Positions 3,634-27,026 are shown, counted from the first letter of the stretch. The stretch is DNA of 64,000 bases from Deinococcales bacterium (GCA_031414595.1 JANNVX010000032.1:6947-70946), one strand, 5' to 3'. Made by a program: numbers and translations. Notes: generated from the letters alone by a model not told the origin.

Positions 3634-3667
3634 CTCAAAGCCCATAGCCCAAAGCTCATAGCCCAAC
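3634..3667. repeat. left copy of a ~34-bp inverted repeat pair (CTCAAAGCCCATAGCNCAAAGCNCATAGC)
   Basis: About 90% identical to the reverse complement of 13617-13651. Abuts the stop codons of two convergent genes. Confidence 0.5.
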
Positions 3668-4098
3668 TATGGAATCACATATATCCCATCGCTGCGAGCC
3701 TCGAGCTTAAAGGCTGGTAATGGCTTGGCGGCTGGACCTTGAATCACTGCACCTGTTTCTAAGTTAAACAAACTGCCGTGGCAAGGGCAACCAAGTTGAT
3801 TATTGACGGGTGCGCTGACTCCACAGCCAACATGGGTGCAAACCGTAGAACGAGCAATTAAATGGATTTCGCCTTGGCTGATGCCAGCCGCTTGTGGTTT
3901 GGCAACCCTTGCAATAATGGCTGGATTGGTCTCGAGATTGAGGTTCTTAAAACTACCAACACTGGGAAATTCGCTTAAAGTCGCTACTTTTATGCCCGCT
4001 TGGGCTAGACTCGCTCCGGGGTTTTCTCGGATTGGCATACAGCCAGTCGCACCAATTGCTCCAATTGTAACTAGGGCTTCTCGTCTGGTGATTTTCAT
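3667..4098 (-). CDS. Rieske [2Fe-2S] protein with Tat signal
   Basis: Twin-arginine N-terminus MKITRREAL. Rieske boxes CTHVGC and CPCHGS. Confidence 0.75.
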   Translation of the reverse strand: MKITRREALVTIGAIGATGCMPIRENPGASLAQAGIKVATLSEFPSVGSFKNLNLETNPAIIARVAKPQAAGISQGEIHLIARSTVCTHVGCGVSAPVNNQLGCPCHGSLFNLETGAVIQGPAAKPLPAFKLEARSDGIYVIP

Positions 4099-4315: not shown

Positions 4316-5767
4316 GTGGGTATGAGTATGCTCGAATCTGTGCGTGATCGTTTGTTTCCTGATACTCCAGACGGGTCGGCAAAGCTGTGGCTTACGTCGT
4401 CTGTGGTCTGGGGGGTTATTGGCATGACCTTTGGTGTGTTCATGGCAATTTTGTTTGTCTTTCCAGAATTCACCAAAGGTGTGCCGTGGTTGTCGTTTAG
4501 TCGGATTCGTCCGTCACACGTCAACACCGTGGTGATGTCTTGGGTTTCGATGGCAAGCATTGGCTCGATGTTTTATATGTTGCCGCGCTTATTAAAGACT
4601 CCACTGGTTTCTGAGCGTCTGGGTACGGCGGTCGGTTGGTCTTGGAACGCCTTTGCCATCTGTATTCCGCTAACACTCTTAAATGGACTATCGGAAGGGC
4701 GCGAGTGGGCGGAGCTTGTTTGGTGGATGGATTGGTGGATGTTGATTAACCTTGGCTTGGTCGGTTATTTAACCTTTGCGACTGTGGCAAGACGCACCGA
4801 ACCACAATTGTACGTCTCGGTTTGGTATTGGATGGGTTCGATGGTTGGCATGACCTTGGTCTGGATTGTTGGCAACCGAACTTTTGTACCACTAGACGGA
4901 CTTAACGATGCGATTGCCAATTGGTTCTATGCCCACGATGTATTAGGATTATGGATTACCACCATGGGCATTGGAATTATTTACTACCTGTTGCCAAAAC
5001 TAACGGCTGGCAAGAATGGCGAACCGGGCAACCCTGTCTTTAGCCATAAAATGTCCTTGATTGGGTTCTGGGGAAATTTTGCCTTCTACACGGGTATTGG
5101 GGCGCATCACATTATTCAGTCGCCAGTTCCAGAATGGCTTAAAGCCTTTGCGATTGCCTCGAGTGTTTTAATGAGCATTCCAGTCTACTCGGCAAGTGCC
5201 AATTTTTTCTTAAGCACCCAAGGGCGTTGGGAGAACTTGGCTTGGAATTTACCGCTTCGATTTGTAACCTTTGGCTGGATTATGTACGCGCTCTCGAGTT
5301 TTCAGGGCAGTTTACAAGCAGTGCGTTCAATCAACTGGTATCAGCACTTCACGGGAATTGTCAGCGCTCACGCCCATTTAGCCATGCTTGGTGGCTTTAG
5401 CGTGGTGTTGTTTGCTAGTATTTATTACTGTATTCCGCGTCTTTACAAAGTCGAGTGGTACTCTAAAAAACTCGTGGTGGTGCATTTTTGGACGTTTACG
5501 GTTTCGTTTGTAATGTTCTTTTTGGTCTGGACAACCATGGGCTTTGTACAAGCCACCAGTTGGGTCATGGGGATTAACGTCCAACAAACCGTGCCATTTT
5601 TACAACCGTTTACCTTCACCCGCATGATTGCCGCGTTAGCGATGATTTTTTCGGTTTATATTTTTGCCTATAACGTGCTGCAAACTGTGCGGAGCGCTAA
5701 ACGTCAAGAGGCTTTTTCCGGAGCCAGAATTCCTTCAGCAGTTGCGCCTGCTGCGGCGGATGATTAG
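4316..5767 (+). CDS. ccoN: cbb3-type haem-copper oxidase subunit I (CcoN-like)
   Basis: 483 aa polytopic protein. His-ligand motifs GAHH and HAH are present. Followed by CcoO. SD GGAGGAAGG lies upstream. Confidence 0.75.
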   Translation: MGMSMLESVRDRLFPDTPDGSAKLWLTSSVVWGVIGMTFGVFMAILFVFPEFTKGVPWLSFSRIRPSHVNTVVMSWVSMASIGSMFYMLPRLLKTPLVSERLGTAVGWSWNAFAICIPLTLLNGLSEGREWAELVWWMDWWMLINLGLVGYLTFATVARRTEPQLYVSVWYWMGSMVGMTLVWIVGNRTFVPLDGLNDAIANWFYAHDVLGLWITTMGIGIIYYLLPKLTAGKNGEPGNPVFSHKMSLIGFWGNFAFYTGIGAHHIIQSPVPEWLKAFAIASSVLMSIPVYSASANFFLSTQGRWENLAWNLPLRFVTFGWIMYALSSFQGSLQAVRSINWYQHFTGIVSAHAHLAMLGGFSVVLFASIYYCIPRLYKVEWYSKKLVVVHFWTFTVSFVMFFLVWTTMGFVQATSWVMGINVQQTVPFLQPFTFTRMIAALAMIFSVYIFAYNVLQTVRSAKRQEAFSGARIPSAVAPAAADD

Positions 5768-5775
5768 GAGTTTTT

Positions 5776-6699
5776 ATGCTGAATCCTAAGAATGCAATTA
5801 TCGGGCTGATGTTTATGCTCCTTGTGACTGGTGTGACCAGTTTGGTGGTCGTCGTACCCGCCGCAACTTTTAATCCTGAGCCATCAGTTGGTTTACGCAA
5901 TTACACCGAAGCCGAGTTGCGTGGGCGCGAAGTTTTTAAGCGCGAGAACTGCTATGTTTGCCATAGTCAATTTGTGCGTTTTCAAGACGAAGGTGTTGGT
6001 CCAACTTCGCAAGCTGGCGACTTTGCCTACGACAATTCAAACTTGCTCGGCACGCTGCGAAATGGTCCGGATTTGACCTATGAAGGCGGCTTATACCCGG
6101 ACGAATGGCACATTGGGCATCTAAAAGCGCCGCGTTCGTACTTACCGGGCAGCTATATGCCAAGTTACAGTTACTTAGACTCTAAAGACATCAAAGACCT
6201 TGTGGCATTTATCCAAAGCCTTGGGACACGCAATACACGAGCTTGGGACACCAAAGATGTCAATGTCCCAGAAAAGTACCGCAATCTCGAGTCTCCACTT
6301 GGTCAGACGGCAGCAAATATCGGGGCTGGGCGTGGTATTTACAACCAGAATTGCTCGGCTTGTCACGGCTTTGAGGGTCGGGCAGATGTGCCTTTGGCAA
6401 AAATGTTCTATCCAAAACCAGCCGCCAATTTCCATTTGCCTCGTTATAAAGATTTTACCGACGGACACTGGTTTAATAAAGTCGCAAGGGGCGTACCGGG
6501 AACTCGGATGCCGCGCTGGGACCAAATTCTCAATTCTGAGCAAATGTGGTATGTCGTCACCTACCTAAAGTCTTTAGCAGCAGACCAAGACCTTGTGCCG
6601 AAAGCGGGACGGGAAAAGTATTACGACAAGTCAGTTTTGCAACCCGGAACAATCAAGAAAAAGTACGAAGGCGCACCTAAAGCGGGCGGTGGTCACTAA
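5776..6699 (+). CDS. ccoO: CcoO-like monohaem subunit fused to a second c-type cytochrome domain
   Basis: N-terminal TM helix. First CYVCHSQ...GPDL...MPSY region matches the FixO/CcoO pattern. A second CSACH haem motif sits in the C-terminal half. Confidence 0.7.
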   Translation: MLNPKNAIIGLMFMLLVTGVTSLVVVVPAATFNPEPSVGLRNYTEAELRGREVFKRENCYVCHSQFVRFQDEGVGPTSQAGDFAYDNSNLLGTLRNGPDLTYEGGLYPDEWHIGHLKAPRSYLPGSYMPSYSYLDSKDIKDLVAFIQSLGTRNTRAWDTKDVNVPEKYRNLESPLGQTAANIGAGRGIYNQNCSACHGFEGRADVPLAKMFYPKPAANFHLPRYKDFTDGHWFNKVARGVPGTRMPRWDQILNSEQMWYVVTYLKSLAADQDLVPKAGREKYYDKSVLQPGTIKKKYEGAPKAGGGH

Positions 6700-6992
6700 T
6701 GAAACATTTGGCTCGAGCCTTGGTTCTTGCTTGTTTCTCGAGTTTGGCATTTGCCGACCATGTGCCGGGCGTTGGCTTAAATTACAGTGGAACTTGGGTG
6801 GTGTTGATTGCTGTTGGTGTGATTTTTTCGCTTTTGATTTTGTCTTTGTTGTGGGCAGTTTTAGATGGGCAATTTCAGAATTCTGAACGGGTTAAATTTG
6901 CAGTGGCAGAGGTTAATGAAACCGATTTTATTCCGAGTATTGAGCGTCCGCAAGGCAATCTGGGTATTCAACGTCCGCAAGGCAAGAGGTGA
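6699..6992 (+). CDS. small membrane protein with C-terminal ERPQGN repeat
   Basis: TAATG-coupled to ccoO. One TM helix. The DNA carries a tandem copy of CGTCCGCAAGGCAA. Confidence 0.4.
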   Translation: MKHLARALVLACFSSLAFADHVPGVGLNYSGTWVVLIAVGVIFSLLILSLLWAVLDGQFQNSERVKFAVAEVNETDFIPSIERPQGNLGIQRPQGKR

Positions 6993-6995
6993 GTT

Positions 6996-7154
6996 ATGGC
7001 AGAGCAGAATAAAGACAACCACGACGACAACCATACCCACGAAATTGCTGGTATTCAAGTTGGCGAGAAAAACGTGCCAACCTCAGTGATTGCTGTGATT
7101 ATTTTCATTGTCTTTTTCGCCTTAATTTCTTGGATTGCACCACAGGGGTTTTGA
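6996..7154 (+). CDS. 52-aa single-TM protein, FixP_N/CcoQ-like
   Basis: Not in the ORF track (<60 aa). HTHEIAGIQ...TM helix resembles the CcoP N-terminal segment. Its stop overlaps the start of the next gene (TGATG). Confidence 0.35.
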   Translation: MAEQNKDNHDDNHTHEIAGIQVGEKNVPTSVIAVIIFIVFFALISWIAPQGF

Positions 7155-8158
7155 TGAAAAAAATCATAACACTCTTTCTAATCTCGAGTTTAGCCGCTTG
7201 TAGCGTACCGAGTAACGCCAATAATCCAGCCAAAGAAGCCGCCAAAAAAGGGGTTTTGTACATTCGTGAAGGCGAAAAACCACTTGAATTAAAAGTCGAA
7301 GAAGGCGCATATGACTGGAAGTACCCGAAGTACCCCGAAGATTACAAAGTTGATTTGAGTAACCGCGACCAAAACAACCAAACTTATATGTCTGGGCGGG
7401 AAATCACTTACCGAGCCAAACCCGATGGTCAACATAAAATGGACACTGCCTTGGCAGAATTTGGTTCATATGCAGGTCCTTGGCTCGAGGGCGAAGAAGC
7501 CTTGCTCTTACCAGTAGCCAACCCCAATGTGGTACTGGGTGACGCTTTAATCAAGAGTTTGGGGGCAGAAATCAAGCCCGAAATGCTGCCGACACTCGAA
7601 GAAACCCCTTTTCAGGCATACTTAAAATTGCGTGAACTTGGTAAGGACACGGAAGGTCGTCACCGCACTGTAACCATCGAATTAACTGGTGTGACTAACC
7701 CTTCGAGTGGCAAGCCCGAAAATGCCGAGTACGATGTTCAACTTGATAAAGAGGCTTTATGGAGCATTGCTTACGCTTTGTACCGCAAAATTCAACCTGA
7801 CTTTAAGACCAGAATTCCAACTCGAGAAGACCCGAAAAAACTACTCGATGGCGCATTGATTTACGGCAATTGCAACATGTGTCACGGCTCGGATGGTTGG
7901 GGCTTGGGCAAGAGTGGTCATAAGTTGCAACCACACCCAGCCAATTTTCATGAGCCAAGGCGTTTGTTTAATCGTTCTGATGCCAAACTGCGTGAAGTCT
8001 TGAAGCACGGAATTTACGGAAGTGCCATGCCACCGTGGGGTGACATACTCTCTGAAAATGAAATTAACCATGTGGTGGCATATATTCGTTCTTTTTCGTA
8101 CAGTCTCGAGCCACCAGTCTTGAATGTCAAACCACGTTTTAAGGGAGGTCAGCCATGA
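7154..8158 (+). CDS. lipoprotein with C-terminal monohaem cytochrome c domain (CcoP c-domain-like)
   Basis: Lipobox LAAC. CNMCH haem motif and a C-terminal cyt-c-like tail. Start trimmed to MKKIITL. Confidence 0.6.
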   Translation: MKKIITLFLISSLAACSVPSNANNPAKEAAKKGVLYIREGEKPLELKVEEGAYDWKYPKYPEDYKVDLSNRDQNNQTYMSGREITYRAKPDGQHKMDTALAEFGSYAGPWLEGEEALLLPVANPNVVLGDALIKSLGAEIKPEMLPTLEETPFQAYLKLRELGKDTEGRHRTVTIELTGVTNPSSGKPENAEYDVQLDKEALWSIAYALYRKIQPDFKTRIPTREDPKKLLDGALIYGNCNMCHGSDGWGLGKSGHKLQPHPANFHEPRRLFNRSDAKLREVLKHGIYGSAMPPWGDILSENEINHVVAYIRSFSYSLEPPVLNVKPRFKGGQP

Positions 8159-8183
8159 ACCTGACACTCAAGGGAGGTCAACC

Positions 8184-8837
8184 ATGATTGACCGCAGAAG
8201 TATCGTGAAAGGCATCACTATTTTGCCGCTTTTAGCTGTGGCTGGTGGGATTGGAACTGCCCTTTTATCGTTTCTTAAACCGACTTGGAAACCACTGGCT
8301 TTGCCTGTCACCGAAAAACCCTTAAATGAGGACAAAGTTGTTGGCACACTCGAGGAATTTGCTAAGGATTACGACTTTAAGGCGTTTGTATTCACGCAAA
8401 TTACCGTCGAATACACGGCTCGAGGGCGGGCGGCTACCGATGTGCTTGGTTATGCGGTTCGCATCCCCAATAACAGTTTAGCCGCCGCCGATGTGGGTGT
8501 TGGACCCAGTGGCTTACGCCGAGGCTACGGCGAAACTGATTACAATGGTCAAAAGTACAGCATTGTGGTGGTCTCAAGAATTTGCGCTCATTTGGGTTGT
8601 ATTTTTGAGTACCATCAACCTGCCGAAGTTTGTTCTGGCTTTAATTACTGTGGCGGCTCTACTCCAATGTTTTCTTGTCCGTGCCATTTATCGGTCTATG
8701 ACCCAGCCCAACAGCAAGATGTGGCTGGGGTTGGTAAATTACCCGGCAAGGTTGTCTCTGGTCCTGCGCCCCGCACTCCATTTCCTTTTGATTTTGAAAT
8801 TAAAGGCAATGAAATCATCGTCAAAAGCTACGGTTAA
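8184..8837 (+). CDS. Rieske iron-sulfur protein of a bc/b6f-type complex
   Basis: SD AGGGAGG then ATG. N-terminal TM helix. Rieske boxes CAHLGC and CPCHLS. Confidence 0.75.
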   Translation: MIDRRSIVKGITILPLLAVAGGIGTALLSFLKPTWKPLALPVTEKPLNEDKVVGTLEEFAKDYDFKAFVFTQITVEYTARGRAATDVLGYAVRIPNNSLAAADVGVGPSGLRRGYGETDYNGQKYSIVVVSRICAHLGCIFEYHQPAEVCSGFNYCGGSTPMFSCPCHLSVYDPAQQQDVAGVGKLPGKVVSGPAPRTPFPFDFEIKGNEIIVKSYG

Positions 8838-8849
8838 GGAGGAATACTT

Positions 8850-10157
8850 ATGGCAGCCCCCGCAGTTCCCGCAAAAAAAGCTGTTCCAAATGTTGGGCAA
8901 AAAATCGCCCAATGGTGGACTAAAAGTGCGCGTAATTTAGATTTATTTGACGAAAACCAAACCGATAAAGTTTTAACCGACCCGTGGTACATGCTTGGTG
9001 GGATGGCGTTGTTGTTTTGGTACATCACCATTGTGACAGGCACAGTTCTGATGTTTTTTTATGTGCCGGACACCTATCAGGCATGGCGCAGTGTGCGTGG
9101 AATGTTTGAAGGTGAACAGGGTTTTATTGTTGCCCTGATTCGCAATATGCACAAATACGGCGCAGATGCACTGATTATTGCCCTAACAATGCGAATTTAC
9201 CGCATGTACTTTAGGGGTGAATTTAAGAATTACAATCAGCTTTCCTATATGCTGACAATCATTGGCTTACTTTTAGCCATGTTTAGTGGTTTAACGGGTT
9301 ACTTGCTGATTTGGAATCAACGCGCACTGTGGGCAACCAAGGTTTTTGCGACCTTCCCAACTTTTGTGGATGATTTTCACAATATCCCGACGATCAAAGT
9401 CTTCCTAGCTCCGCTTGCTTATGTTCTCGAGCATACCCTCTCGAGTCTTAAAATTGGGGCTTTGACGGCTAATTTTATGCTGGCTGGTCAAAGTATCGGT
9501 CCAGCTACTTTGACCCGTTTTTACAGCGCCCATTTTATGCTTTCGATGCTGGCAATTTTGGCAATTGAAGCCTACTTTGCCCGTAAGGGACGCGGTGGTA
9601 AAATTGGTGAAGCGGCAGCCGGTGGTGGGGCTGGGCGCTTTAAGCGGATTAATTTACCGTGGTTTGCAGTGGTTTTTTGTTTTGTAATTCTGGTGGTAGT
9701 TTCGATTTGGGTTCCAGTGGATACGGGCAGCCCCGCGAACTACAGCGTTACGCCAAATCCGATTTTGTCCGACTGGTACTTTTTGGGGTTGTACCAAATG
9801 ATGAAGTGGTGGCAACCCGCCGTGGCAACCTTACAGACCGTTTTGCTTCCCTTGGTGGCTTTTATTGTCGTCTTTTTAGATTATAGCCCCGAACGCAATC
9901 CTTGGAAACGCCCGTTCTGGACAATGGTTGGAATTTACGGATTGGTCTCATGGTTGGCGTTTAGCATCCTGATTATTCTAAACATTGCCGACATTAAACG
10001 CGACCCACCTTATGTTTACTTGGTCAGCATGATTATGCTTGGGGCTGGCGCAATTTGGCACTGGGTCTTTATGGCAGGCGAACGCAAAAAACGCTTAAAA
10101 CTCGAGGCAGAAAAAGCCGCTAAAGCTGCTCTAGCCGCCCCACAAGCGGCTGATTAA
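8850..10157 (+). CDS. cytochrome b (long form) lacking both haem bH ligands
   Basis: Cyt b/b6 helix B and D motifs are present. First His is retained (NMHKYG, SAHFML). Residues at the +14 His positions are Arg and Tyr. Confidence 0.7.
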   Translation: MAAPAVPAKKAVPNVGQKIAQWWTKSARNLDLFDENQTDKVLTDPWYMLGGMALLFWYITIVTGTVLMFFYVPDTYQAWRSVRGMFEGEQGFIVALIRNMHKYGADALIIALTMRIYRMYFRGEFKNYNQLSYMLTIIGLLLAMFSGLTGYLLIWNQRALWATKVFATFPTFVDDFHNIPTIKVFLAPLAYVLEHTLSSLKIGALTANFMLAGQSIGPATLTRFYSAHFMLSMLAILAIEAYFARKGRGGKIGEAAAGGGAGRFKRINLPWFAVVFCFVILVVVSIWVPVDTGSPANYSVTPNPILSDWYFLGLYQMMKWWQPAVATLQTVLLPLVAFIVVFLDYSPERNPWKRPFWTMVGIYGLVSWLAFSILIILNIADIKRDPPYVYLVSMIMLGAGAIWHWVFMAGERKKRLKLEAEKAAKAALAAPQAAD

Positions 10158-10174
10158 GCGAAAGGAAAGCAATC

Positions 10175-10477
10175 ATGAAAGGAAGCACTTGGCTATTTAC
10201 CCTCGCCTCATTTGTTGGTGGCATCCTTGTCTTTTCAAGTGGCTACAACCAAGTGTTGCGCTACCTCGAGCAGCCGACTTGGACGGGCTTAGCGATGATT
10301 GCTTTTTGGTTGACTTTGCTGCTGTTTTTTGTGGTTACACTGGGGTTTATTATGTATGCCGTAGACCGCAAAGCTGGCAATGTACGGGTCAAAATCGCGT
10401 TATTTGAACGTTTACTGGGTTATTCTAAAGAGGCTGTTTTGCCAGAATCTCGAGAAAAAAATAAGGAGAATTCATGA
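10175..10477 (+). CDS. small membrane protein (2 TM)
   Basis: Hydrophobic 100-aa ORF with an SD. Lies within the coupled operon. Confidence 0.4.
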   Translation: MKGSTWLFTLASFVGGILVFSSGYNQVLRYLEQPTWTGLAMIAFWLTLLLFFVVTLGFIMYAVDRKAGNVRVKIALFERLLGYSKEAVLPESREKNKENS

Positions 10478-10845
10478 AGACAATCATCGCCATACTGCTG
10501 GTTTTAGGGGCGCTCGGACTTGCGCCTTTGACCATTGGGGCGTTCGCTCACGCCAATCCAGATTTTGGAACAGTTGATAAAACCTTATCTTCCGAAAATC
10601 CATACATTGTTCGTGAGGATGGAGCGCCAAAAATTCCAGAGCTTGCGGTGAGCTTGGTTAAAATTATTCGAGATACCGAAGGGGCGATTTCTGGGGCGTT
10701 GCTGCCAAACCTAAAATCCTTCCCATTTGAACGTGGCTTTGCGTATATGGGCTTAACTGTACTGCTGACTGCGATTGCTTCGGCACTGCTTGCCGATACG
10801 CGCAGTCAAACCCTCGTTAAACCTGGCAAGAGGAGGCTGGCATAA
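10474..10845 (+). CDS. exported protein (signal peptide)
   Basis: ATGA overlap with the upstream gene. Cleavable-looking N-terminus. Confidence 0.4.
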   Translation: MKTIIAILLVLGALGLAPLTIGAFAHANPDFGTVDKTLSSENPYIVREDGAPKIPELAVSLVKIIRDTEGAISGALLPNLKSFPFERGFAYMGLTVLLTAIASALLADTRSQTLVKPGKRRLA

Positions 10846-12032
10846 TGGCAGGTTACAGCGCCGACCAAGCCCCAACTTCTCGGGACAAAGGTTTTGATGC
10901 AGGTTTAGATGGTATCCATAAAGGTGTTGTTGCCGTAGACAAAGCCATCAATAAAGTCATCCCCGAAGAGTTCAATCCGTTTTATTACTTGGGCGGCATC
11001 ACCAATGTACTTTGGGTGCTGCTTGTGCCAACCGGCATTTTCTTGTGGTTTTACTATAAACCCACCACCTCAGAAGCCTTCTCGAGTGTTGATTATTTAA
11101 CCGTACAGGTCTTTTTTGGTGGTGTGATTCGCGGTATTCATCGTTATGCTGGCAATGGCATGATTTTATTGGCGGTGCTGCACATGTTGCGTAATTTCTT
11201 CACCGACCGTTACCGAGGCTTTAGAGATATCCCTTGGGTTTCTGGAGTTATCCTCTTGTTTCTAACTGGTTTCATTGGCTTGACTGGTTATTTGTTGGTT
11301 TGGGATCAACGCGCCTTGGTCATTACCGAAGCCTTGGTACAGATTTTACGCAGTTTTGACTTGGTGGTTGCTGGATTTGGCACTTGGTTAGCCAGAGGAC
11401 TCATCGGTGGTGACGAACCGAATAATTTAACCTTGGCTCGGATGCTGTTTTTGCATGTTGGACCTGCAGTGATGGTGTTCTTTTTCTTGTGGGTGCATTA
11501 TTTGCGTTTGCACCGCCCCAAAATCTGGCCTCCGGCTTTTGTAACGCTACTGACGATTGGCGCAGTTTTATTGGTGGCTGGTTTAGCACCACTCGAGAAA
11601 ACCTTGCCCGCCACACAACCGATTGTTGAAGGACAAGCTGCCATTGTCTATGACATTTTCTATTTGCTGCCTGTATTAGCGCTCTCGAGCATCAGCGCCC
11701 CTTGGATTTTGGCGATTCTACTGCTGCTTTTTGCGGTGATGTTTATTCTGCCTTGGATTCCAGCCAAAAAACACCGTTATGTCAATGTCGCAACCGTCAC
11801 CCCAGAAAACTGTACCGGTTGTCAACTCTGTGCTATTGACTGCCCGTTTGACGCAATCGTGATGGTTCCTGGAGCAAATCCAAATCCGCGTTATACCGAG
11901 TTAGCCGTGGTCAATGATGACAAATGTGCTGAATGTGGTATTTGCGTTGGTGCTTGCCCATTCCATGCAATCAATCTCCCGCTCATGGATGAATACACTG
12001 TGCGCGATAAGGTGGTGGCGTTACTTAAATGA
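10845..12032 (+). CDS. dihaem cytochrome b domain fused to 2x[4Fe-4S] ferredoxin domain
   Basis: Helix B has H..(13)..H (GIHRY...VLHML). Helix D has H..(13)..H (FLHVG...WVHYL). C-terminal CTGCQLCAIDCP and CAECGICVGACP motifs. Confidence 0.75.
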   Translation: MAGYSADQAPTSRDKGFDAGLDGIHKGVVAVDKAINKVIPEEFNPFYYLGGITNVLWVLLVPTGIFLWFYYKPTTSEAFSSVDYLTVQVFFGGVIRGIHRYAGNGMILLAVLHMLRNFFTDRYRGFRDIPWVSGVILLFLTGFIGLTGYLLVWDQRALVITEALVQILRSFDLVVAGFGTWLARGLIGGDEPNNLTLARMLFLHVGPAVMVFFFLWVHYLRLHRPKIWPPAFVTLLTIGAVLLVAGLAPLEKTLPATQPIVEGQAAIVYDIFYLLPVLALSSISAPWILAILLLLFAVMFILPWIPAKKHRYVNVATVTPENCTGCQLCAIDCPFDAIVMVPGANPNPRYTELAVVNDDKCAECGICVGACPFHAINLPLMDEYTVRDKVVALLK

Positions 12033-12517
12033 CACAAGCAACTGAACATATCCAACCCCAAGTTTTAGCCTTGAGTGGCAAACCCAAAATTTTTGGCTTT
12101 GTCTGCGAATGGAGCTTAGGACGCACCGATTACATCCATGAAGATGGCACGGTCAAAGGCATGGAGCATATCAAAACCCTTAAAATTCCTTGCTCGGGCT
12201 TTGTGAAAACCGAATGGGTCACGGTGGCATTTGAAAATGGCGCTCAAGGTGTGTTTGTGCTGGGTTGCCCACTCGGAGATTGCCATTTTAACGAAGGTAA
12301 CTTCATTATTAACGGCAGACTCGAGCAGCACACAGGCAGAATGGTCAACCGTAAAATCATTGACGAAGCTGGGCGCGTTGCCGAGCTTTACCTTGGTGTG
12401 ACTGGCAACAACGATTTCTTTACTCAACTCGAAGACTTCACCAAGTACATCAGCGACATGCCAGCCTTGGTAGTCGCTGCCAAAAAACCTCGGGCTGCGG
12501 CAGCCAAAAAGGAGTAA
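12029..12517 (+). CDS. MvhD/FlpD-like hydrogenase iron-sulfur subunit family protein
   Basis: Cys pattern CEWS...PCSGF...GCPLGDCHF, typical of the methyl-viologen-reducing hydrogenase delta subunit family. ATGA-coupled to the upstream gene. Confidence 0.6.
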   Translation: MTQATEHIQPQVLALSGKPKIFGFVCEWSLGRTDYIHEDGTVKGMEHIKTLKIPCSGFVKTEWVTVAFENGAQGVFVLGCPLGDCHFNEGNFIINGRLEQHTGRMVNRKIIDEAGRVAELYLGVTGNNDFFTQLEDFTKYISDMPALVVAAKKPRAAAAKKE

Positions 12518-12521
12518 TCAG

Positions 12522-12725
12522 ATGGAAGAAACTGCTGTAAATTCTAAAATTCTCGAGATAAGCGGCGAATCTACCTTGGCTGTGCGACCTGAACTCGAGC
12601 AAGTTGGAACTACCGAAAAGGACTCTCGGGGGGTGGGCTATCTGATGAATTGGGTCAGTTTAATTTTACTTTTTGTGCTTTCAATGATTGCCATTGCTTG
12701 GTTTGGACCTTTTAGCGAAGTATAG
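12522..12725 (+). CDS. small C-terminally anchored membrane protein
   Basis: SD AAGGAG. One TM helix at the C-terminus. Confidence 0.35.
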   Translation: MEETAVNSKILEISGESTLAVRPELEQVGTTEKDSRGVGYLMNWVSLILLFVLSMIAIAWFGPFSEV

Positions 12726-12773
12726 CCGAGCCTCATCTTAAGTCTGGTTCTTAATCATCCAAAAAGCGTTAAA

Positions 12774-12806
12774 CTAGAGGCAACCATCAGTGGTTGCCTC
12801 TAGTTT
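12774..12806 (+). terminator. perfect 12-bp stem hairpin abutting the kinase start codon
   Basis: CTAGAGGCAACC-ATCAGT-GGTTGCCTCTAG followed by TTT, then ATG. Confidence 0.4.
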
Positions 12807-13616
12807 ATGGCAAGAATCCCTTTAACAACACCTGAGCCAGCCGAACCTTCCAATGCGATGGATAAGTTGCGTATGAGCCAAATAGAAATTATCTCGATCA
12901 CCCCATTTATTCGGCTCGAGAAGGGCAATTGGCAAGGCAAGCGTGTGCTGGTCAAACGCTTAAAAACATCCATGATGAACAACCCTGATGTGCTTGAACG
13001 CTTCGAGCGCGAAGCCGATATTCTCGAGCGGCTTGACCACCCGAATATCCCAGCCTTGATTCACCGCGAATCTGGGGTACTGATGCGCCAATACGTTGAA
13101 GGCAACACGCTTTATCATTACCTCAACACCGCCACCATAGACACCGCCTCAACTTTGCATATTGCAAGGGGTTTATTGTCGGCATTGGTGCATTCGCACG
13201 TCCGAGAAATCCTACATTTGGATGTCAAACCCGCCAATGTGCTACTCAGCGCTGACCGCCGCGTCCATCTGATTGATTTTGGATGTGCCAAAGACCTGAC
13301 TTTGGGCAGTATTACCCACCATGAAGCCCGTCTTGGCACACCGCATTACATGGCACCCGAGCAATTCAAAGGCATCCGCGATGAACAACGCTCCGACATT
13401 TACAGCGTCGGGGCAGTGATGTACGAATGCCTGATGGGACAACCACCACAACGTGACCCATTTGCATGGTTATCTGGACGTGGTGCATTACCCAAGCAAA
13501 TGCCTAAGAATAATCAGTTGGCTGATATCATCTGGAAAGCCATTCAACGCAACCCAGACCACCGATACGACGAAGCCCTTGATATGCTCGAGGCGTTAGA
13601 AGCGATTGAAGTTTAG
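12807..13616 (+). CDS. Ser/Thr protein kinase (Hanks-type)
   Basis: HLDVKPANVLL catalytic loop, DFG, and GTPHYMAPE activation segment. Confidence 0.75.
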   Translation: MARIPLTTPEPAEPSNAMDKLRMSQIEIISITPFIRLEKGNWQGKRVLVKRLKTSMMNNPDVLERFEREADILERLDHPNIPALIHRESGVLMRQYVEGNTLYHYLNTATIDTASTLHIARGLLSALVHSHVREILHLDVKPANVLLSADRRVHLIDFGCAKDLTLGSITHHEARLGTPHYMAPEQFKGIRDEQRSDIYSVGAVMYECLMGQPPQRDPFAWLSGRGALPKQMPKNNQLADIIWKAIQRNPDHRYDEALDMLEALEAIEV

Positions 13617-15145: not shown

Positions 15146-16690
15146 ATGACGATTCAATTGACCAACCCTGTACCCGAAGTAGCAATGCCACTTTTTTCGC
15201 AAGCTGCCTTAGAATTTGTGACTCAACTCGAGCAGAAATTTGCAGCGCGGCGCTTGGAGTTACTGACCGCTCGAGCCGAACGCGCCAAGCGCCTAAAAAA
15301 CGGCGAATTACCGCATTTTTTGCCTGAAACAAGCAATATCAGGGAATCTGAATGGACGGTTGCACCATTGCCACAAGACCTACAAGACCGCCGTACCGAA
15401 ATAACCGGACCCGTAGACCGAAAAATGGTGATTAACGCCCTCAATTCTGGGGCAAAGGTTTTTATGGCAGATTTTGAAGATGCCAATAGTCCAACATGGT
15501 CAAACACCACGCTAGGACAAGTGAATTTGCTTGATGCCAATAAACGCATTATTTCACTCGAGCAGGGCGAAAAAACCTATGTGTTAAACCAAACCGTTGC
15601 GACTCTCAAAGTTCGTCCGCGTGGTTGGCATCTCGAGGAACGCCATGCGGTCTTGGATGGCAAGGCTGTGTCGGCTTCGCTGTTTGATTTTGGGATTTAC
15701 TTTTTTAACAATGTTGATGTGCTGCTTGGACGTGGTTCAGCCCCTTATTTTTACCTGCCTAAACTTGAATCACATCTCGAGGCAAGATTATGGAACGATG
15801 TTTTTGTCTTTGCCCAAGAATACCTTGGTGTCCCACAAGGCACGATTCGCGCCACAGTTTTAATCGAAACAATCCTCGCCTCGTTTGAAATGCACGAGAT
15901 TTTGTATGAACTGCGCCACCACTCGAGTGGCTTAAATTGCGGACGTTGGGATTATATTTTTAGTTTTATTAAAAAACTCGGTCACGACCCTAGATTTGTT
16001 CTGCCAGACCGTGCCAAAGTGACGATGGCAACCCAGATGATGCGCTCCTACTCAAAACTGGCGATACAAACCTGCCACAAGCGCAACGCCCCAGCCATCG
16101 GCGGGATGAGTGCTTTTATTCCCGTTAAAAACGATGAGGCTGCCAATGCAAAGGCATTTGAACAAGTTCGGCTTGATAAAGAACGTGAAGCTGGCGATGG
16201 TCATGACGGCACTTGGGTGGCGCACCCCGGGCTTGTCCCTGTGGCACTCGAGGTCTTTAACCGACTGATGCCGACCCCCAATCAAATCGGCAAAATTCCA
16301 GAAGGGGCTGTTTTTGAATCAGACCTTTTAATTGTTCCGACCGATGGTGTGACCCGAACTGGACTCGAGCTAAATGTTTCTGTGGCACTCCAATACTTAG
16401 AAGCATGGTTACGCGGCAGTGGGGCAGTGCCAATCAATAATTTAATGGAAGATGCGGCTACCGCCGAAATCTCGAGGGCGCAACTCTGGCAATGGGTGCA
16501 TCACAAAGTTGAACTCGAGGACAGCACAATTGTCACCCGCGACTTGGTACTACAAACCATTCAAAAGTACCTTGGACAGCTAAAAGCAGAAGGCAAACGC
16601 TTTGAAGAAGCCGCTAAACTCTTAATCAACACCACCAAAGAACCATTTGCCGAATTCTTAACCACCTCGGCGTACCAAATTCTTGAGTAA
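15146..16690 (+). CDS. aceB: malate synthase A
   Basis: Colinear with E. coli AceB, including DFEDANSPTW, GLNCGRWDYIFS and MEDAATAEISR. Confidence 0.85.
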   Translation: MTIQLTNPVPEVAMPLFSQAALEFVTQLEQKFAARRLELLTARAERAKRLKNGELPHFLPETSNIRESEWTVAPLPQDLQDRRTEITGPVDRKMVINALNSGAKVFMADFEDANSPTWSNTTLGQVNLLDANKRIISLEQGEKTYVLNQTVATLKVRPRGWHLEERHAVLDGKAVSASLFDFGIYFFNNVDVLLGRGSAPYFYLPKLESHLEARLWNDVFVFAQEYLGVPQGTIRATVLIETILASFEMHEILYELRHHSSGLNCGRWDYIFSFIKKLGHDPRFVLPDRAKVTMATQMMRSYSKLAIQTCHKRNAPAIGGMSAFIPVKNDEAANAKAFEQVRLDKEREAGDGHDGTWVAHPGLVPVALEVFNRLMPTPNQIGKIPEGAVFESDLLIVPTDGVTRTGLELNVSVALQYLEAWLRGSGAVPINNLMEDAATAEISRAQLWQWVHHKVELEDSTIVTRDLVLQTIQKYLGQLKAEGKRFEEAAKLLINTTKEPFAEFLTTSAYQILE

Positions 16691-16692
16691 AT

Positions 16693-17634
16693 TTATAACC
16701 ACGTTTGCATTTGCTTAGGTGTTAAGTTCCCACCACAAATAATCGTGGCAACTCGAGAACCAATAAATTGCGCCCGATGCTCGAGCAGTGCTGCAATACC
16801 CACCGCCCCAGACGGTTCTACCACCAAACCAAGGTGTTGATGCAGTAATTTCATTGCCTCGAGAATACTGGAATCCGAGACCAGCAAGCCATCATCCACA
16901 ATGCCGTTCATGTCTTGTACTGCCTCGAGAATCGGTTCGCGTACCCCAATCCCGTCAGCAATTGTGTTTACGCTGTCAAACCGCACAACCTTCCCAGCCC
17001 GCCAAGACTCGAGCATACTTGGCGCACCAGCCGCACAGATTGCCACCACTTTTGCCCTCGAGTTGGCTTTGATGTACCGTGCAACACCGTTTAAGAGCGC
17101 TCCGTTACCCAATGGAATCAACACCGCATCAAAATCTAAGCCACGCAGCATCTCGAGTCCGATTGTTCCCGCCCCTTCGGAAATCAGTGGCTCGAGACCA
17201 TCTTCAACCATATAGGCATTGTTTTTGATTGCCCAGCGTTTTGCCTCGAGTTTAGCGGCATCAAAATCCTCACCATACAAAATGACAGTTGCACCCAATG
17301 CCCGCATTCGCTCGAGTTTTAGCGGATTGGCATTAACACTGGCAAAAACCGTTAAATCAATACCCTTAGCACGGCAAGCATATGCCATTGCCTGACCAAA
17401 ATTCCCAGCACTGCCGCAGACCAGTTTTGCACTTTTCTCGAGACTCGAGATAAAATGACTTGCACCACGACCCTTAAAGCTGCGAACCGGATTGAGCGTC
17501 TCGATTTTGACCGTAACTCGAGTACCCAGTGCAGCATTTAGGGCTTCGGATTCGTATTGCGGGCTGTTTAGAAATTCGGCTGGAATGGTGAGCATGGCAT
17601 TTTCTATCGACTCGAGACTTAAACGATGTTTCAT
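16693..17634 (-). CDS. PLP-dependent threonine/serine dehydratase-family enzyme
   Basis: Start trimmed to MKHRL. PLP-lysine motif SFKGRGA. Confidence 0.7.
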   Translation of the reverse strand: MKHRLSLESIENAMLTIPAEFLNSPQYESEALNAALGTRVTVKIETLNPVRSFKGRGASHFISSLEKSAKLVCGSAGNFGQAMAYACRAKGIDLTVFASVNANPLKLERMRALGATVILYGEDFDAAKLEAKRWAIKNNAYMVEDGLEPLISEGAGTIGLEMLRGLDFDAVLIPLGNGALLNGVARYIKANSRAKVVAICAAGAPSMLESWRAGKVVRFDSVNTIADGIGVREPILEAVQDMNGIVDDGLLVSDSSILEAMKLLHQHLGLVVEPSGAVGIAALLEHRAQFIGSRVATIICGGNLTPKQMQTWL

Positions 17635-17658
17635 TGATAACTCCTTTATACTGAACCT

Positions 17659-17940
17659 ATGAACCTCGAGCAAATACAGCAGATTGCTGCCCGAAATCGT
17701 GTCCAACGACTCGAAATTTTTGGTTCGGCATCTCGAGGTGAAACTGCCAACGACTTTGATTTTTTGGTGCAATTTCAACCGATGCCTGTCCTTGAGCATG
17801 GTCGGGCATATTTTGCGTTGCTTGAGGAATTACGTCTGGCTTTGAATAAACCGATTGATTTACTTGAGGAAAACGCGATTGAAAATCTATTTTTTCTAAA
17901 AAGTATCGCCGCCGATAGAAAAGAGATTTATGTCGCTTGA
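17659..17940 (+). CDS. mntA: MNT-type nucleotidyltransferase antitoxin
   Basis: GSxxRGE...DxD minimal nucleotidyltransferase motif (FGSASRGETANDFDFLV). Confidence 0.7.
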   Translation: MNLEQIQQIAARNRVQRLEIFGSASRGETANDFDFLVQFQPMPVLEHGRAYFALLEELRLALNKPIDLLEENAIENLFFLKSIAADRKEIYVA

Positions 17941-18265
17941 AGCCCAAATATACGCGGCTGATATTCTCAAAGCCATTGGTTTGATTGAACGATTTACCAA
18001 GAACTTTGAGTATGAGGCGTATTGCTTGGATGTCTTGCGAATTTCGGCGGTTGAGCGTCAACTGGGTATTATTGGTGAAGCTGTGACACAAATGGTTAAA
18101 CTCAATTCGAGTTTTTCGGTTCGCAATGCAAAACAAATTATTGGGTTTCGTAATATTTTGATTCATAATTATGCTCGAGTTAGCCAAGCTGTGATTTGGA
18201 CAATTGTCATAGATGAATTACCCGTCCTAAAAATTGAATGCGAAGCAATAGTTGAATTAACCTAA
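17930..18265 (+). CDS. hepT: HepT/DUF86 toxin
   Basis: Overlaps the MNT gene. HepT R-x4-HxY-like motif (RNILIHNY). Confidence 0.7.
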   Translation: MSLEAQIYAADILKAIGLIERFTKNFEYEAYCLDVLRISAVERQLGIIGEAVTQMVKLNSSFSVRNAKQIIGFRNILIHNYARVSQAVIWTIVIDELPVLKIECEAIVELT

Positions 18266-19380
18266 GTACAGAACTCCTTGATGGTTTCAAACAAATTGTT
18301 GGTTAATGTTTCCAAACTGGTTAAGTCCACCCATTCGGTTTTGGCATGAGCGCCGTCGCCTATCACACCGTACATGACTGTATCTATACCAGCCGCTTGC
18401 ATCAGCGCGGCATCTGCCCAGTAGCTTGCACCAGAAATTTTTGCACCAGTTTTGCATTGCAGAATCTCGAGGATAACAGCGTCTGGCGGAGTCGCGAGCG
18501 GGTGGCGCTCGAGACCAATTTGATAACTGGCTTTGAAGGTCGGGTCAGCCGCACGGCAGGTCTCGAGGATTGCCTGAATTTCGTTTTGTAGGGTTGCCGC
18601 GTTTTCATTTGGAATGGTGCGCCGTTCAAGCTCGAGGACACACTGCGCGGGGTAACTCGAGCGCTCCTCTCCTCCACTGATATGGCTGGCATGAAGGCTT
18701 CCAGTGCCTAGAAGTGGATGCGGTGAATCTAAACGCAATTGTGTATCTAACTTCTCGAGTTCGATTAAAACCCGTCCCATTTTGGCAATCGCATCCACCC
18801 CCAAATGTGGTCTCGAGCCGTGCGCCGCTACACCGTGGGTGGTGATGGTTGCCCAAACAAAACCTTTGTGGGCGGTGACAATCTCAAGTTCGGTAGGTTC
18901 GATCACGATTCCAGCATCGGCAGTAAAGTGCCGCAACACTTCTTCTGTGCCAATACTCGAGTCTTCTTCATCGCTTACACAGGCAACAATAATATCGCCA
19001 CGCAGTCCAAGTTTTTTGGCTCGAGAAGCCGCAATCAGCATGGCAGCAACGCCGCTTTTCATGTCGTAACTACCACGCCCGAACATTTTGCCGTTTTCAA
19101 CTCGAGGCTCGAGCGCGTTGCCTTCGTAACCCGCAATCGTCACAGTATCCAAATGCCCATTGAGCATCAGGCTACGCCCACCACCCGTGCCTTTGGCAAC
19201 ACCAACCACACTTGGGCGACCTGCCGTGTCCTCGAGCCAATGGGTGGTAAAGCCGTTTTGCTCGAGCCAGTGCTGCACGAATTTAGCAATGTTCGTTTCG
19301 CCAGCCCCGCCAGTCACTAAACTAGGATTGACGCTGTTAATAACAATCAGTTGCTCGAGAAGTTTTTGGGAGTCGGTCAT
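18262..19380 (-). CDS. M20 family metallopeptidase (ArgE/DapE-like)
   Basis: GHLDTV and GRGSYDMKSG motifs. Start trimmed to MTDSQKL. Confidence 0.75.
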   Translation of the reverse strand: MTDSQKLLEQLIVINSVNPSLVTGGAGETNIAKFVQHWLEQNGFTTHWLEDTAGRPSVVGVAKGTGGGRSLMLNGHLDTVTIAGYEGNALEPRVENGKMFGRGSYDMKSGVAAMLIAASRAKKLGLRGDIIVACVSDEEDSSIGTEEVLRHFTADAGIVIEPTELEIVTAHKGFVWATITTHGVAAHGSRPHLGVDAIAKMGRVLIELEKLDTQLRLDSPHPLLGTGSLHASHISGGEERSSYPAQCVLELERRTIPNENAATLQNEIQAILETCRAADPTFKASYQIGLERHPLATPPDAVILEILQCKTGAKISGASYWADAALMQAAGIDTVMYGVIGDGAHAKTEWVDLTSLETLTNNLFETIKEFCT

Positions 19381-19595
19381 ATTGGTATGTAATATACTAC
19401 TTGAAGAAACTTGGGTTTGCAAGTCGTATCTATGCTTATTTTTAATTACTGATCGTAAAAAATTTGTGCTAGGCTCGAGTTATAGCGGGAGTCGCAATTT
19501 CTTTCAGTCGTAAAAATCTGGAGGCGGTGCTGTTATTCTCGCCAATTATTTATAGCCATGAATCATCAGTAAATTGCGATTCATACCGCTTTAGA

Positions 19596-19631
19596 CGCAT
19601 ATTTAAGCCAAGGTTGTGACTCGAGTATAAT
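19596..19631 (+). promoter_or_regulatory. candidate sigma70 promoter (TTTAAG-18 nt-TATAAT)
   Basis: Perfect -10 hexamer at 19626-19631, about 60 nt upstream of the small ORF. The -35 element is weak. Confidence 0.3.
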
Positions 19632-19689
19632 TTTTAACCGCGATGTTTTCTTGAAAATACATCTGCTCACACTCAGCCAAAGGAGTCGC

Positions 19690-19830
19690 ATGAAAGACAG
19701 TCATAAAGACCAGAAAATTCCGTATCAAACTCCAAAACTCGAGGGGTTAGGCGTATTTGTGGCGCTCATCGGTGGTTCACCGATTCGTGTGCCAATTCAA
19801 CTCGAAGTGCCAGTAAAAGGAGAAAAATAA
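19690..19830 (+). CDS. 46-aa small protein, translationally coupled to the downstream lipoprotein
   Basis: SD AAAGGAG. ORF MKDSHKDQKIPYQTPKLEGLGVFVALIGGSPIRVPIQLEVPVKGEK. Its stop overlaps the next start (TAATG). Confidence 0.35.
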   Translation: MKDSHKDQKIPYQTPKLEGLGVFVALIGGSPIRVPIQLEVPVKGEK

Positions 19831-24549: not shown

Positions 24550-24564
24550 GGGTAGAATACCGTC

Positions 24565-24852
24565 ATGGATACCCAAGCCATACAGCAGATTCTAGGGCAA
24601 CACCAAGCCGAACTTCGGGCGTTTGGTGTGCGCGAACTGCTTTTGTTTGGCAGCACTGCCCGAGGCGAAGCCACGCCGCAAAGCGACCTAGATTTTTTGG
24701 TCGAACTCGAGCGATACACACTAACCGATTTTATGGGCTTAAAATTTGCACTCGAAGAATGGTTTGGTCAAAAAATAGATTTAGGGACTCGAGCCAGCCT
24801 AAAACCGATACTGAGCGCCGAAGTCGAAAAGGACTTACGCCGTGTCGCGTAA
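24565..24852 (+). CDS. mntA: MNT-type nucleotidyltransferase antitoxin (second copy)
   Basis: FGSTARGEATPQSDLDFLV motif. Confidence 0.7.
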   Translation: MDTQAIQQILGQHQAELRAFGVRELLLFGSTARGEATPQSDLDFLVELERYTLTDFMGLKFALEEWFGQKIDLGTRASLKPILSAEVEKDLRRVA

Positions 24853-26727: not shown

Positions 26728-26743
26728 TCAGCTATAATTTCGT

Positions 26744-26983: not shown

Positions 26984-27026
26984 GGTTCGTTGCATTTTGG
27001 CTCGAGTCTCGGGTTAGCATGGGCGC

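Follow-up and report, generated by a model that had tools for sequence, protein, structure and literature searches.

Two unlike cytochromes b, a Rieske protein and an MvhD-type subunit: an uncharacterised complex III variant encoded beside cbb3-type oxidase genes in Deinococcales

Introduction

What kind of complex III is encoded when a Rieske gene is followed by two unlike cytochrome b genes, the second of which includes a ferredoxin domain and adjoins a gene for an MvhD/FlpD-type iron-sulfur protein, and where would its electrons go? The question is raised by nucleotides 8184 to 12725 of a 64,000-nucleotide stretch of DNA from a Deinococcales bacterium (GCA_031414595.1, JANNVX010000032.1:6947-70946), hereafter called the window. 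A previous reading made from the sequence alone (the sequence-only reading) had described this gene set as an unorthodox Rieske/cytochrome b cluster with two cytochrome b paralogues, located downstream of a cbb3 oxidase. Both descriptions are upheld by the analysis reported here: no structure or family model describes the cluster, and it is genetically coupled to cbb3-type oxidase genes. Its products can be considered an uncharacterised variant of respiratory complex III that is found in at least six bacterial phyla.

Results

Loss of the inner-haem ligands from the long cytochrome b

The four gene products at the centre of the analysis are encoded as follows.

8184-8837, + strand: Rieske [2Fe-2S] protein with a twin-arginine signal or anchor (Pfam Rieske, 17.1 bits); the ribosome-binding site GGGAGGT precedes the ATG at 8184.
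8850-10157, + strand: long cytochrome b (cyt b1), 435 amino acids, eight transmembrane (TM) helices, predicted to be mono-haem (Cytochrome_B 1.5e-20, Cytochrom_B_C 7e-5).
10845-12032, + strand: di-haem cytochrome b with a 2x[4Fe-4S] ferredoxin (Fd) domain (cyt b-Fd), 395 amino acids (Cytochrome_B 1.9e-28, Fer4 2.4e-11).
12029-12517, + strand: MvhD/FlpD-type protein (FlpD), presumed [2Fe-2S], 162 amino acids (PF02662 2.6e-20); ATGA overlap with the cyt b-Fd gene.

The most telling feature of the locus, absent from the sequence-only reading, is that the long cytochrome b is missing its n-side haem ligands. Cyt b1 was aligned residue by residue to the cytochrome b6 of solved b6f structures (2zt9_A), and its residues were checked in two sets of sequences, a first of 67 genome orthologues and a second of 121 members (the window protein and 120 database clusters), 187 sequences overall. 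The ligands of the outer (p-side) haem are kept, as His86 and His187 of b6 align to H101 and H228, and those of the inner (n-side) haem are replaced, His100 of b6 aligning to R115 and His202 falling on Y242/F243. The helix-B ligand position is Arg or Lys in all 67 genome orthologues and in 120 of the 121 sequences of the second set, the other one having a gap, and the helix-D ligand position is almost always Tyr, Phe or Arg in both sets. H101 and H228 are the sole conserved histidine columns of cyt b1. The four histidines that hold the two haems in the cytochromes b of bc1 and b6f complexes are thus incomplete in cyt b1 and complete in cyt b-Fd.

As judged from these alignments, cyt b1 is a mono-haem cytochrome predicted to carry the outer haem, bp, only, and without the inner haem, bn, no quinone-reduction (Qi) site would be possible in it. 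The motif of the quinol-oxidation (Qo) site, which reads SDWY with S in place of the P of P[DE]WY, is invariant in the 187 sequences, and in the Rieske protein the residues of the boxes CxHxxC and CxCH (C134, H136, C139, C165, C167 and H168) are invariant among 63 orthologues. Cyt b1 thus retains everything required for quinol oxidation with the Rieske protein.

The empty bn pocket of the cyt b1 family includes two invariant positions, an Arg/Lys in helix B (R115) and a Glu in helix D (E240). These two residues may form a salt bridge that fills the pocket.

The cytochrome b-ferredoxin fusion and the FlpD subunit

All 108 cyt b-Fd sequences compared retain the four haem ligands (H99, H113, H204 and H218) and the full complement of eight cysteines in two CxxCxxCxxxC(P) motifs. 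Its Qo-like motif is degenerate, with the pattern xD[WVLI][FL][FY] and the version YDIFY in the window, the Asp (D270) being kept in 77 of 80 sequences. The losses in the two cytochromes are hence complementary: cyt b1 keeps Qo and loses bn, and cyt b-Fd keeps bn and has a degenerate Qo motif. A haem ci Qi site of the b6f/Firmicutes type was considered and ruled out, since the position of Cys35 of b6, the haem ci cysteine, is occupied by Tyr or Met.

An AlphaFold2 (AF2) model of cyt b-Fd built on the 108-sequence alignment (pLDDT 89.6, pTM 0.85) consists of six TM helices, A to F, a ten-residue linker and a ferredoxin fold; with an alignment of 13 sequences the pLDDT of the Fd domain was 63. 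Helices G and H are missing. In all bc1 and b6f structures the chain exits on the n-side after helix F, and as the Fd domain follows helix F in the model, its clusters are predicted to lie on the cytoplasmic side. A Foldseek search of the PDB matched cyt b-Fd to cytochromes b of bc1 and b6f complexes only, none of them with an Fd fusion, and the closest solved chain by sequence is cytochrome b6 (5e-33).

FlpD scores 73.1 bits against PF02662 (cut-off 22.3), aligns to MvhD in the Mvh-Hdr structure (5odc_D, 1.4e-14), and has four cysteines, C26, C55, C80 and C85, that are invariant in 76 orthologues. A word-indexed search for FlpD homologues returned close relatives only, and it was an exhaustive search that revealed fusions: proteins of 480 to 706 residues in which Cytochrome_B, Fer4 and FlpD are found in one chain and in that order (nine of the ten scanned), with 35% identity to the window cyt b-Fd over 373 residues (E 1e-70). 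Collinearity extends to HdrA2, whose C-terminal part matches the Fd domain followed by FlpD. These arrangements point to the cytochrome b, the Fd domain and FlpD belonging together as one functional unit, and a cytoplasmic location of the Fd domain and FlpD, in association with the second cytochrome b, is supported by both the AF2 fold and the single-chain fusions.

Relatives with the three modules in one chain

The fused proteins carry, in addition to the three modules, an extra TM helix and a C-terminal outer domain of about 130 amino acids, and their cytochrome b paralogues all retain the four histidines. Their genes were studied in metagenome loci (L086-L165, also L081-L083). In 49 of the 51 metagenomic loci that span 9 kb or more, SCO1 precedes the fused gene, which in most of the 51 (44 to 49) is the last gene of a COX2-COX1-(UbiA)-SCO1 operon; a Rieske gene is present in none of them. 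Three loci (L082, L083 and L088) include a gene for a NuoF-like NADH/FMN subunit between two such cytochrome b genes, with no Rieske gene adjoining. The cytochrome b-ferredoxin-MvhD module is therefore associated with operons of haem-copper oxidases in two distinct arrangements.

The fused proteins belong to a clade of cytochromes b, named PDWF-FeS, that a cytochrome b survey listed in one sentence, without studying it, with Magnetospirillum magneticum and Turneriella parva as examples (Kao and Hunte 2014, PMC4122944). The same three modules (di-haem bc-type cytochrome b, 4Fe-4S and MvhD) are found in the same order in that clade and in the window. In the PDWF-FeS proteins, however, they form one polypeptide with the extra helix and outer domain, no Rieske protein and no mono-haem partner, in the COX2-COX1-(UbiA)-SCO1 context, whereas the window has a cbb3 and Rieske operon. 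Because MvhD is encoded by a separate, ATGA-coupled gene, a Rieske gene is present and the motif is YDIFY, the window complex is not a member of this clade and represents a sister group.

One of the loci with fused genes, L082, also includes on its minus strand (16003-21349) a separate Rieske/cytochrome b cluster with a multihaem cytochrome c and a Fer4_20/Pyr_redox_2 flavoprotein that resembles the anammox type. It is located 4 kb from the fused genes on one contig.

Conservation of the cluster across phyla

When the cyt b-Fd protein was scanned against one genome per species at least 412 relatives were detected, and the neighbourhoods of the best 80 loci were examined by searching the window proteins against their open reading frames (ORFs). 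These 80 loci come from metagenome-assembled genomes (MAGs) of Deinococcales and from Armatimonadota, Sysuimicrobiota, Firmicutes including Symbiobacterium thermophilum, Melainabacteria (Vampirovibrio and Obscuribacter) and Holophagaceae; two of them, L001 and L002, belong to uncultured Deinococcales and are 99% and 95% identical to the window. The order cytochrome c, Rieske, cyt b1, m100 (a small membrane protein described below), cyt b-Fd, FlpD is kept in at least six phylum-level groups. In 59 of the 61 loci informative on this point the Rieske and cyt b1 genes immediately precede the cyt b-Fd gene, and in 74 of 75 FlpD immediately follows it, so that the co-location of these four genes is far above chance. 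The possibility of an ordinary bc1 complex accompanied by a spurious extra ORF was ruled out, as at least six phylum-level groups share both the gene order and the replacement of the haem ligands.

Genes for a cbb3-type oxidase are found within 10 kb of the bc genes in 39 of the 48 loci with long flanks, upstream in 36 and downstream in three (Armatimonadota and Sysuimicrobiota). The bc-type cluster can thus be regarded as the core, and the linkage to an oxidase as common, not universal. Several loci of Sysuimicrobiota and Armatimonadota (L010, L013, L023 and similar ones) have CcmB, CcmE and CcmF genes before the bc-type core and a polyprenyl synthase gene after it, and their oxidase genes, where present, are downstream of FlpD rather than upstream. 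In one Vampirovibrionales locus (L031), the cyt b-Fd and FlpD genes adjoin a very large ORF (4556-8671).

A cytoplasmic partner was sought in several ways. A tblastn search with the NuoF-like protein against the window and the 80 loci gave no match; all-against-all clustering of the neighbourhood ORFs returned only ccm genes, polyprenyl synthase and cell-shape genes; and Pfam scans of the remaining window proteins revealed no relevant cytoplasmic donor or flavoprotein. No HdrA, [NiFe] hydrogenase, Flx-type or other flavoprotein partner was found in the window or in the 80 loci.

Organisation of the operon and other features of the window

Twelve tightly packed genes occupy the plus strand from 4316 to 12725, the cbb3-type oxidase genes coming first and the last seven running from the Rieske gene to m67. 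The transcription unit probably starts at ccoN (4316) and ends at a hairpin past 12725. Its other features are listed below.

4316-5767, + strand: CcoN-like subunit I of a divergent C-family (cbb3-type) haem-copper oxidase (Pfam COX1 4e-68); first gene of the unit.
5776-6699, + strand: CcoO (FixO) fused to a second class-I cytochrome c domain (Pfam FixO 7.8e-35, Cytochrom_C 1.8e-20); 8-nt gap after ccoN.
6699-6992, + strand: small membrane protein of 97 amino acids with weak FixS/CcoS-like similarity (FixS E 0.013); TAATG overlap with ccoO.
6996-7154, + strand: single-TM protein of 52 amino acids with one hydrophobic segment.
7154-8158, + strand: mono-haem class-I cytochrome c lipoprotein (Pfam Cytochrome_CBB3 1.5e-10 at the C-terminus); lipobox LAAC, CNMCH motif.
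10175-10477, + strand: m100, small 2-TM membrane protein, a conserved accessory subunit with no Pfam or NCBIfam family.
10474-10845, + strand: m123, exported or membrane protein with a signal-like N-terminus and a C-terminal TM segment; its gene overlaps that of m100 by ATGA and the following one by TAATG.
12522-12725, + strand: m67, single-TM protein with one hydrophobic segment (residues 41-59), present in Deinococcales loci; last gene of the unit.
12770-12807, no strand assigned: perfect 17-bp inverted repeat (hairpin), probable 3' end of the unit.

From the Rieske gene to m67 there are seven ORFs, all on the plus strand, where the sequence-only reading had counted nine. Its proposal that they are translationally coupled through TAATG or ATGA overlaps holds for three of the six junctions (ATGA, TAATG and ATGA) and fails for the other three, which are gaps of 12 nt (Rieske/long cytochrome b), 17 nt (long cytochrome b/m100) and 4 nt (FlpD/m67). 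Further overlaps are located in the upstream oxidase part of the unit, a TAATG between ccoO and the 97-amino-acid gene and a TGATG at the cytochrome c junction, where the listed ORF begins with a TTG at 7130 and the ATG at 7154 is the likely start. As for the gene set and the domain calls made previously (Rieske, long cytochrome b, small proteins, cyt b-Fd, FlpD, small protein), they are borne out by Pfam and by the conserved Cys and His residues. The Fer4 and PF02662 assignments hold at the values given above, and FlpD accompanies the cyt b-Fd gene in the neighbourhood comparison; the Rieske score of 17.1 bits is below the cut-off of 20.3 but the boxes are invariant.

The window includes both a CcoN-type subunit I and a FixO-type mono-haem subunit, the pair that defines a cbb3-type oxidase. 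The CcoN-like protein matches TIGR00780 (ccoN) at 1.7e-72, yet under the curated cut-off, and because the CcoN-type and FixO-type subunits are both far under the NCBIfam equivalog cut-offs the enzyme is considered a divergent member of this type. Of the small genes in this part, the one for the 97-amino-acid protein recurs in Deinococcales and Melainabacteria loci; that for the 52-amino-acid protein, which may be an oxidase subunit similar to CcoQ, is found again between the oxidase and cytochrome c genes in loci of Deinococcales, Melainabacteria and Holophagaceae. The cytochrome c lipoprotein is the probable equivalent of cytochrome c1 or the electron link to the oxidase. Searches with phmmer found m100 homologues at the equivalent position in many loci of several phyla, with a BLAST cluster spanning 47 loci, and confined those of m123 to Deinococcales loci, its slot being occupied by an unrelated small ORF in other phyla.

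The hairpin is a putative terminator for the plus strand; its T-tract is found on the minus-strand side only. The inverted repeat overlaps the ATG of a downstream Ser/Thr kinase gene (12807-13616), and in Deinococcales loci that extend far enough downstream this kinase gene always comes after the operon. Divergent from the operon and just upstream of it, the minus strand (3667-4098) encodes a 143-amino-acid Rieske-domain protein with a twin-arginine/lipoprotein-like N-terminus, which was dropped as a candidate part of the operon since it is common only to the closest relative, L002. Elsewhere in the window there are a type I restriction-modification system (21817-28496) consisting of HsdR (21817-24549), HsdS (25189-26727) and HsdM (27027-28496), with two small ORFs between R and S, and a 631-amino-acid ORF (19830-21725, + strand) with no Pfam match at E <= 1e-5.

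Comparison with known systems

The window shares with canonical bc1/b6f and Thermus FbcCXFB-type operons the Rieske boxes, the N- and C-terminal cytochrome b domains, a P[DE]WY-type motif (SDWY), a c-type cytochrome gene and a matching fold. It differs from canonical bc1/b6f in having two unlike cytochrome b genes instead of one, the Qo-bearing product lacking the bn/bH ligands and the other lacking helices G-H and carrying 2x[4Fe-4S], and in the addition of the MvhD-like subunit; no characterised complex III is known to contain such added parts. The pairing of complex III with a cbb3 oxidase is known from the bc1-cbb3 supercomplexes of Rhodobacter capsulatus and Pseudomonas aeruginosa (PDB 8smr, 6xi0); in the window the pairing is at the level of the operon, and those supercomplexes differ from the window complex in that their bc1 is a homodimer with four haems and Qi sites and lacks an Fe-S arm.

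The MvhD proteins of Mvh-Hdr, FlxD, the MvhD domain of QmoB and HdrA2 share with the window FlpD the fold, the four cysteines and a role as electron relay beside 4Fe-4S domains, the order Fd plus MvhD being collinear with HdrA2. The Mvh-Hdr, FlxD and HdrA2 systems have HdrA, hydrogenase or Flx partners, which the window lacks. MvhD modules can serve quinone-linked membrane complexes, as is the case for Qmo. The anchor in Qmo/Hdr/Nar-type enzymes is a NarI/HdrE-type cytochrome b and that of the window is bc-type, and since sequence and fold match bc1/b6f cytochromes b only, the window complex is not of that type. Nor is it an anammox-type bc complex, as there is no flavoprotein or multihaem gene in the operon.

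A literature search found no study of this complex and only passing mentions in the accessible literature. The survey that named the PDWF-FeS clade dropped every cytochrome b lacking any one of the four histidines (PMC4122944), and the mono-haem cyt b1 family would have gone unnoticed as a consequence of such a filter. The only case of a missing ligand noted there is that of Pyrobaculum, whose cytochrome b lacks one bH ligand (PMC4122944). It indicates that a cytochrome b can do without one haem bH ligand; in the window cyt b1 both inner ligands are gone. The same cluster, with a C-family oxidase, a Rieske gene and two cytochrome b genes, has been seen in Vampirovibrio and Obscuribacter (L036 and L062), where it is called the "complex III-IV operon" of Melainabacteria (Soo et al. 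2017, cited after 10.1101/531145 and PMC6349859). The accessible papers treat it as an ordinary or b6f-like complex III and do not mention the missing ligands, the ferredoxin or MvhD. The statement in the sequence-only reading that this is not a described complex is thus accurate as to characterisation, but the complex had been noticed in passing (10.1101/531145, PMC6349859, PMC4122944). The Pfam and NCBIfam family-model scan revealed no model specific to the complex, all curated cut-offs being missed in that scan.

Discussion

From the order and conservation of the genes, the ligands present and absent, the topology and the fusion of the modules in relatives, we infer heterodimer formation, bp-to-bp electron transfer, an inner quinone site, the direction of flow in the Fe-S arm and the identity of its cytoplasmic partner. 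The account that we put forward tentatively, at slightly less than an even chance, is an asymmetric Rieske/cytochrome b heterodimer in which a Q cycle would be distributed over two unlike monomers and the Fe-S arm would serve as an inlet. The Qo site of cyt b1 would oxidise menaquinol together with the Rieske protein, the first electron going from the Rieske protein through the cytochrome c lipoprotein and the cbb3 oxidase to O2, and the second from haem bp of cyt b1 to haem bp of cyt b-Fd. As bp is the sole haem of cyt b1, the second electron would have to leave via the bp of the neighbouring cytochrome b, and for such a bp-to-bp transfer the two subunits would need to form a heterodimer, or at the least be in tight contact. 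The two bL haems of bc1 dimers lie near enough to one another for intermonomer transfer, and engineered heterodimers of cross-inactivated bc1 monomers indicate that bL-to-bL transfer can sustain turnover; compared with these constructs, the asymmetry here would be natural, cross-phylum and provided with a dedicated second subunit. The complementary retention of Qo and bn is the pattern expected of a homodimer turned heterodimer.

The bn of cyt b-Fd would adjoin a cytoplasmic chain of two [4Fe-4S] clusters and then the [2Fe-2S] cluster of the MvhD-like subunit, and would most likely, in our view, still reduce quinone at the inner side. Reduced ferredoxin, or NAD(P)H by way of a flavoprotein encoded elsewhere, would feed this inner site through the arm, in a manner similar to the path from ferredoxin to cytochrome b6f that has been put forward for cyclic electron flow. 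The arm would be expected to donate to the haem because clusters of the ferredoxin and MvhD types usually have potentials far below that of haem bn, and in the NuoF-containing relatives that lack a Rieske gene inward flow would be expected on thermodynamic grounds, as NAD+ reduction by quinol is impossible without bifurcation. A natural obligate heterodimer, in which a mono-haem cytochrome b passes an electron to a di-haem cytochrome b wired to a 2x[4Fe-4S] plus [2Fe-2S] arm, with interhaem transfer being essential and complex III being coupled to a soluble cytoplasmic carrier, has in our judgement an even chance of being correct.

The case of Vampirovibrio chlorellavorus, which carries the operon (L036), also speaks for this reading. 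This organism is reported to have one complete chain of complexes I-IV in which cbb3 is the only cytochrome c oxidase (PMC4451040), and the operon probably carries its main respiratory flux. As it is apparently the only complex III there, half of the respiratory electrons could hardly just go to a cytoplasmic sink and would have to return to quinone.

Several points weigh against the heterodimer with an inlet arm. The contact between the two cytochromes b is deduced and the inner quinone site of cyt b-Fd is assumed; no conserved Qi-type residues were recognised in cyt b-Fd, where the equivalent of bovine H201 (H223) is present in the window protein and not conserved in the family. In two Vampirovibrionales loci, L031 (9977-12105) and L039 (3787-5391), the cyt b-Fd/FlpD pair stands alone with the Rieske and cyt b1 genes not within reach, and the fused sister clade operates without any Rieske gene; an Fe-S-armed cytochrome b can thus function outside a Rieske complex. 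Finally, in none of the phyla searched does the operon have a cytoplasmic donor or flavoprotein as a conserved neighbour.

These points can be accommodated in other ways. The arm could be an outlet for bifurcation, the Qo site sending one electron to the cytochrome c and the oxidase and the other via bp, bp' and bn into the Fe-S arm, from which it would pass to an acceptor in the cytoplasm (ferredoxin, NAD(P)+ through an unlinked flavoprotein, or a higher-potential acceptor), with no inner quinone site. A Q cycle that has been abandoned would fit the loss of the inner haem, and hence of Qi, from cyt b1 as well as the missing Qi-type residues of cyt b-Fd, and the arm is located where Qi chemistry would happen; anammox Rieske/cytochrome b complexes with NAD(P)-linked subunits are said to have been proposed, by Kartal and colleagues in 2013, to work in this direction. 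Such an outlet nevertheless appears unlikely. With menaquinol (about -74 mV) and a low-potential Rieske protein the second electron would be at roughly -270 mV before crossing the membrane against the potential, from where ferredoxin (-400 mV) would be unreachable and NAD+ marginal. The low-potential acceptor such as ferredoxin that the sequence-only reading had suggested, for which the sequence offers no basis, would accordingly be unfavourable with a menaquinol-type Qo site. The hosts resemble aerobic heterotrophs or predators with no obvious need for an outlet, a sole complex III would require a cytoplasmic sink for half of the respiratory electrons, and no acceptor enzyme conserved nearby was found.

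The isolated pairs of L031 and L039 and the sister clade, never with a Rieske gene and mostly in oxidase operons, would fit a situation in which two separate machines shared one operon: a Rieske/mono-haem cytochrome b without a Q cycle, in which both electrons reach the Rieske protein in turn with bp as a transient store, and an independent cyt b-Fd/FlpD module working as a quinone-linked redox loop or as a transmembrane wire from the cytoplasm to the outer face. The Qo-like Asp kept in cyt b-Fd suggests a quinone site of its own, and a precedent is found in SoxC of Sulfolobus (family match NF041076), a cytochrome b homologue that serves an oxidase without a Rieske protein. Independent complexes, however, poorly explain the complementary losses of Qo and bn or the co-location of both cytochrome b genes in 59 of 61 loci from at least six phylum-level groups, and sequential delivery of two electrons to the Rieske protein is a slow bypass in known bc1; we regard this arrangement as improbable. 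Very unlikely in our opinion is that cyt b-Fd/FlpD is an assembly or maintenance factor of haem-copper oxidases that brings cytoplasmic reductant to the outer face, for instance for copper reduction or to keep Sco/CuA-type thiols reduced, loosely like CcoG, the Fe-S protein that acts as cupric reductase for cbb3 oxidases. It is true that the sister-clade gene follows the gene for the copper chaperone SCO1 in 49 of 51 loci, often with a haem O synthase-like UbiA, that the module tracks oxidase operons in both clades and that the window operon has a weakly FixS-like gene. But the genes of the window clade sit between those for respiratory subunits and not beside biogenesis genes, Sysuimicrobiota and some Firmicutes MAGs have the bc-type core with no oxidase gene within 10 kb, and the loss of the inner haem from the partner cytochrome b would be left unexplained.

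In current genome annotations these genes appear simply as "cytochrome b" and "hydrogenase iron-sulfur subunit". The debate on whether electrons pass from one half of complex III to the other, and on the relevance of this in vivo, has for decades been conducted with engineered enzymes. If the heterodimer proposed here is correct, the operon would be a natural case in which such crossing is compulsory, and complex III would communicate directly with cytoplasmic Fe-S chemistry, an idea so far entertained mainly for b6f in cyclic photosynthetic flow. The cytochrome b-ferredoxin-MvhD module would also be an accessory that has so far escaped recognition in the haem-copper oxidase operons of many phyla. 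As the operon appears to encode the only complex III of the respiring Melainabacteria, the non-photosynthetic sisters of Cyanobacteria, its mechanism would bear on the evolution of aerobic respiration and of b6f-type complexes.

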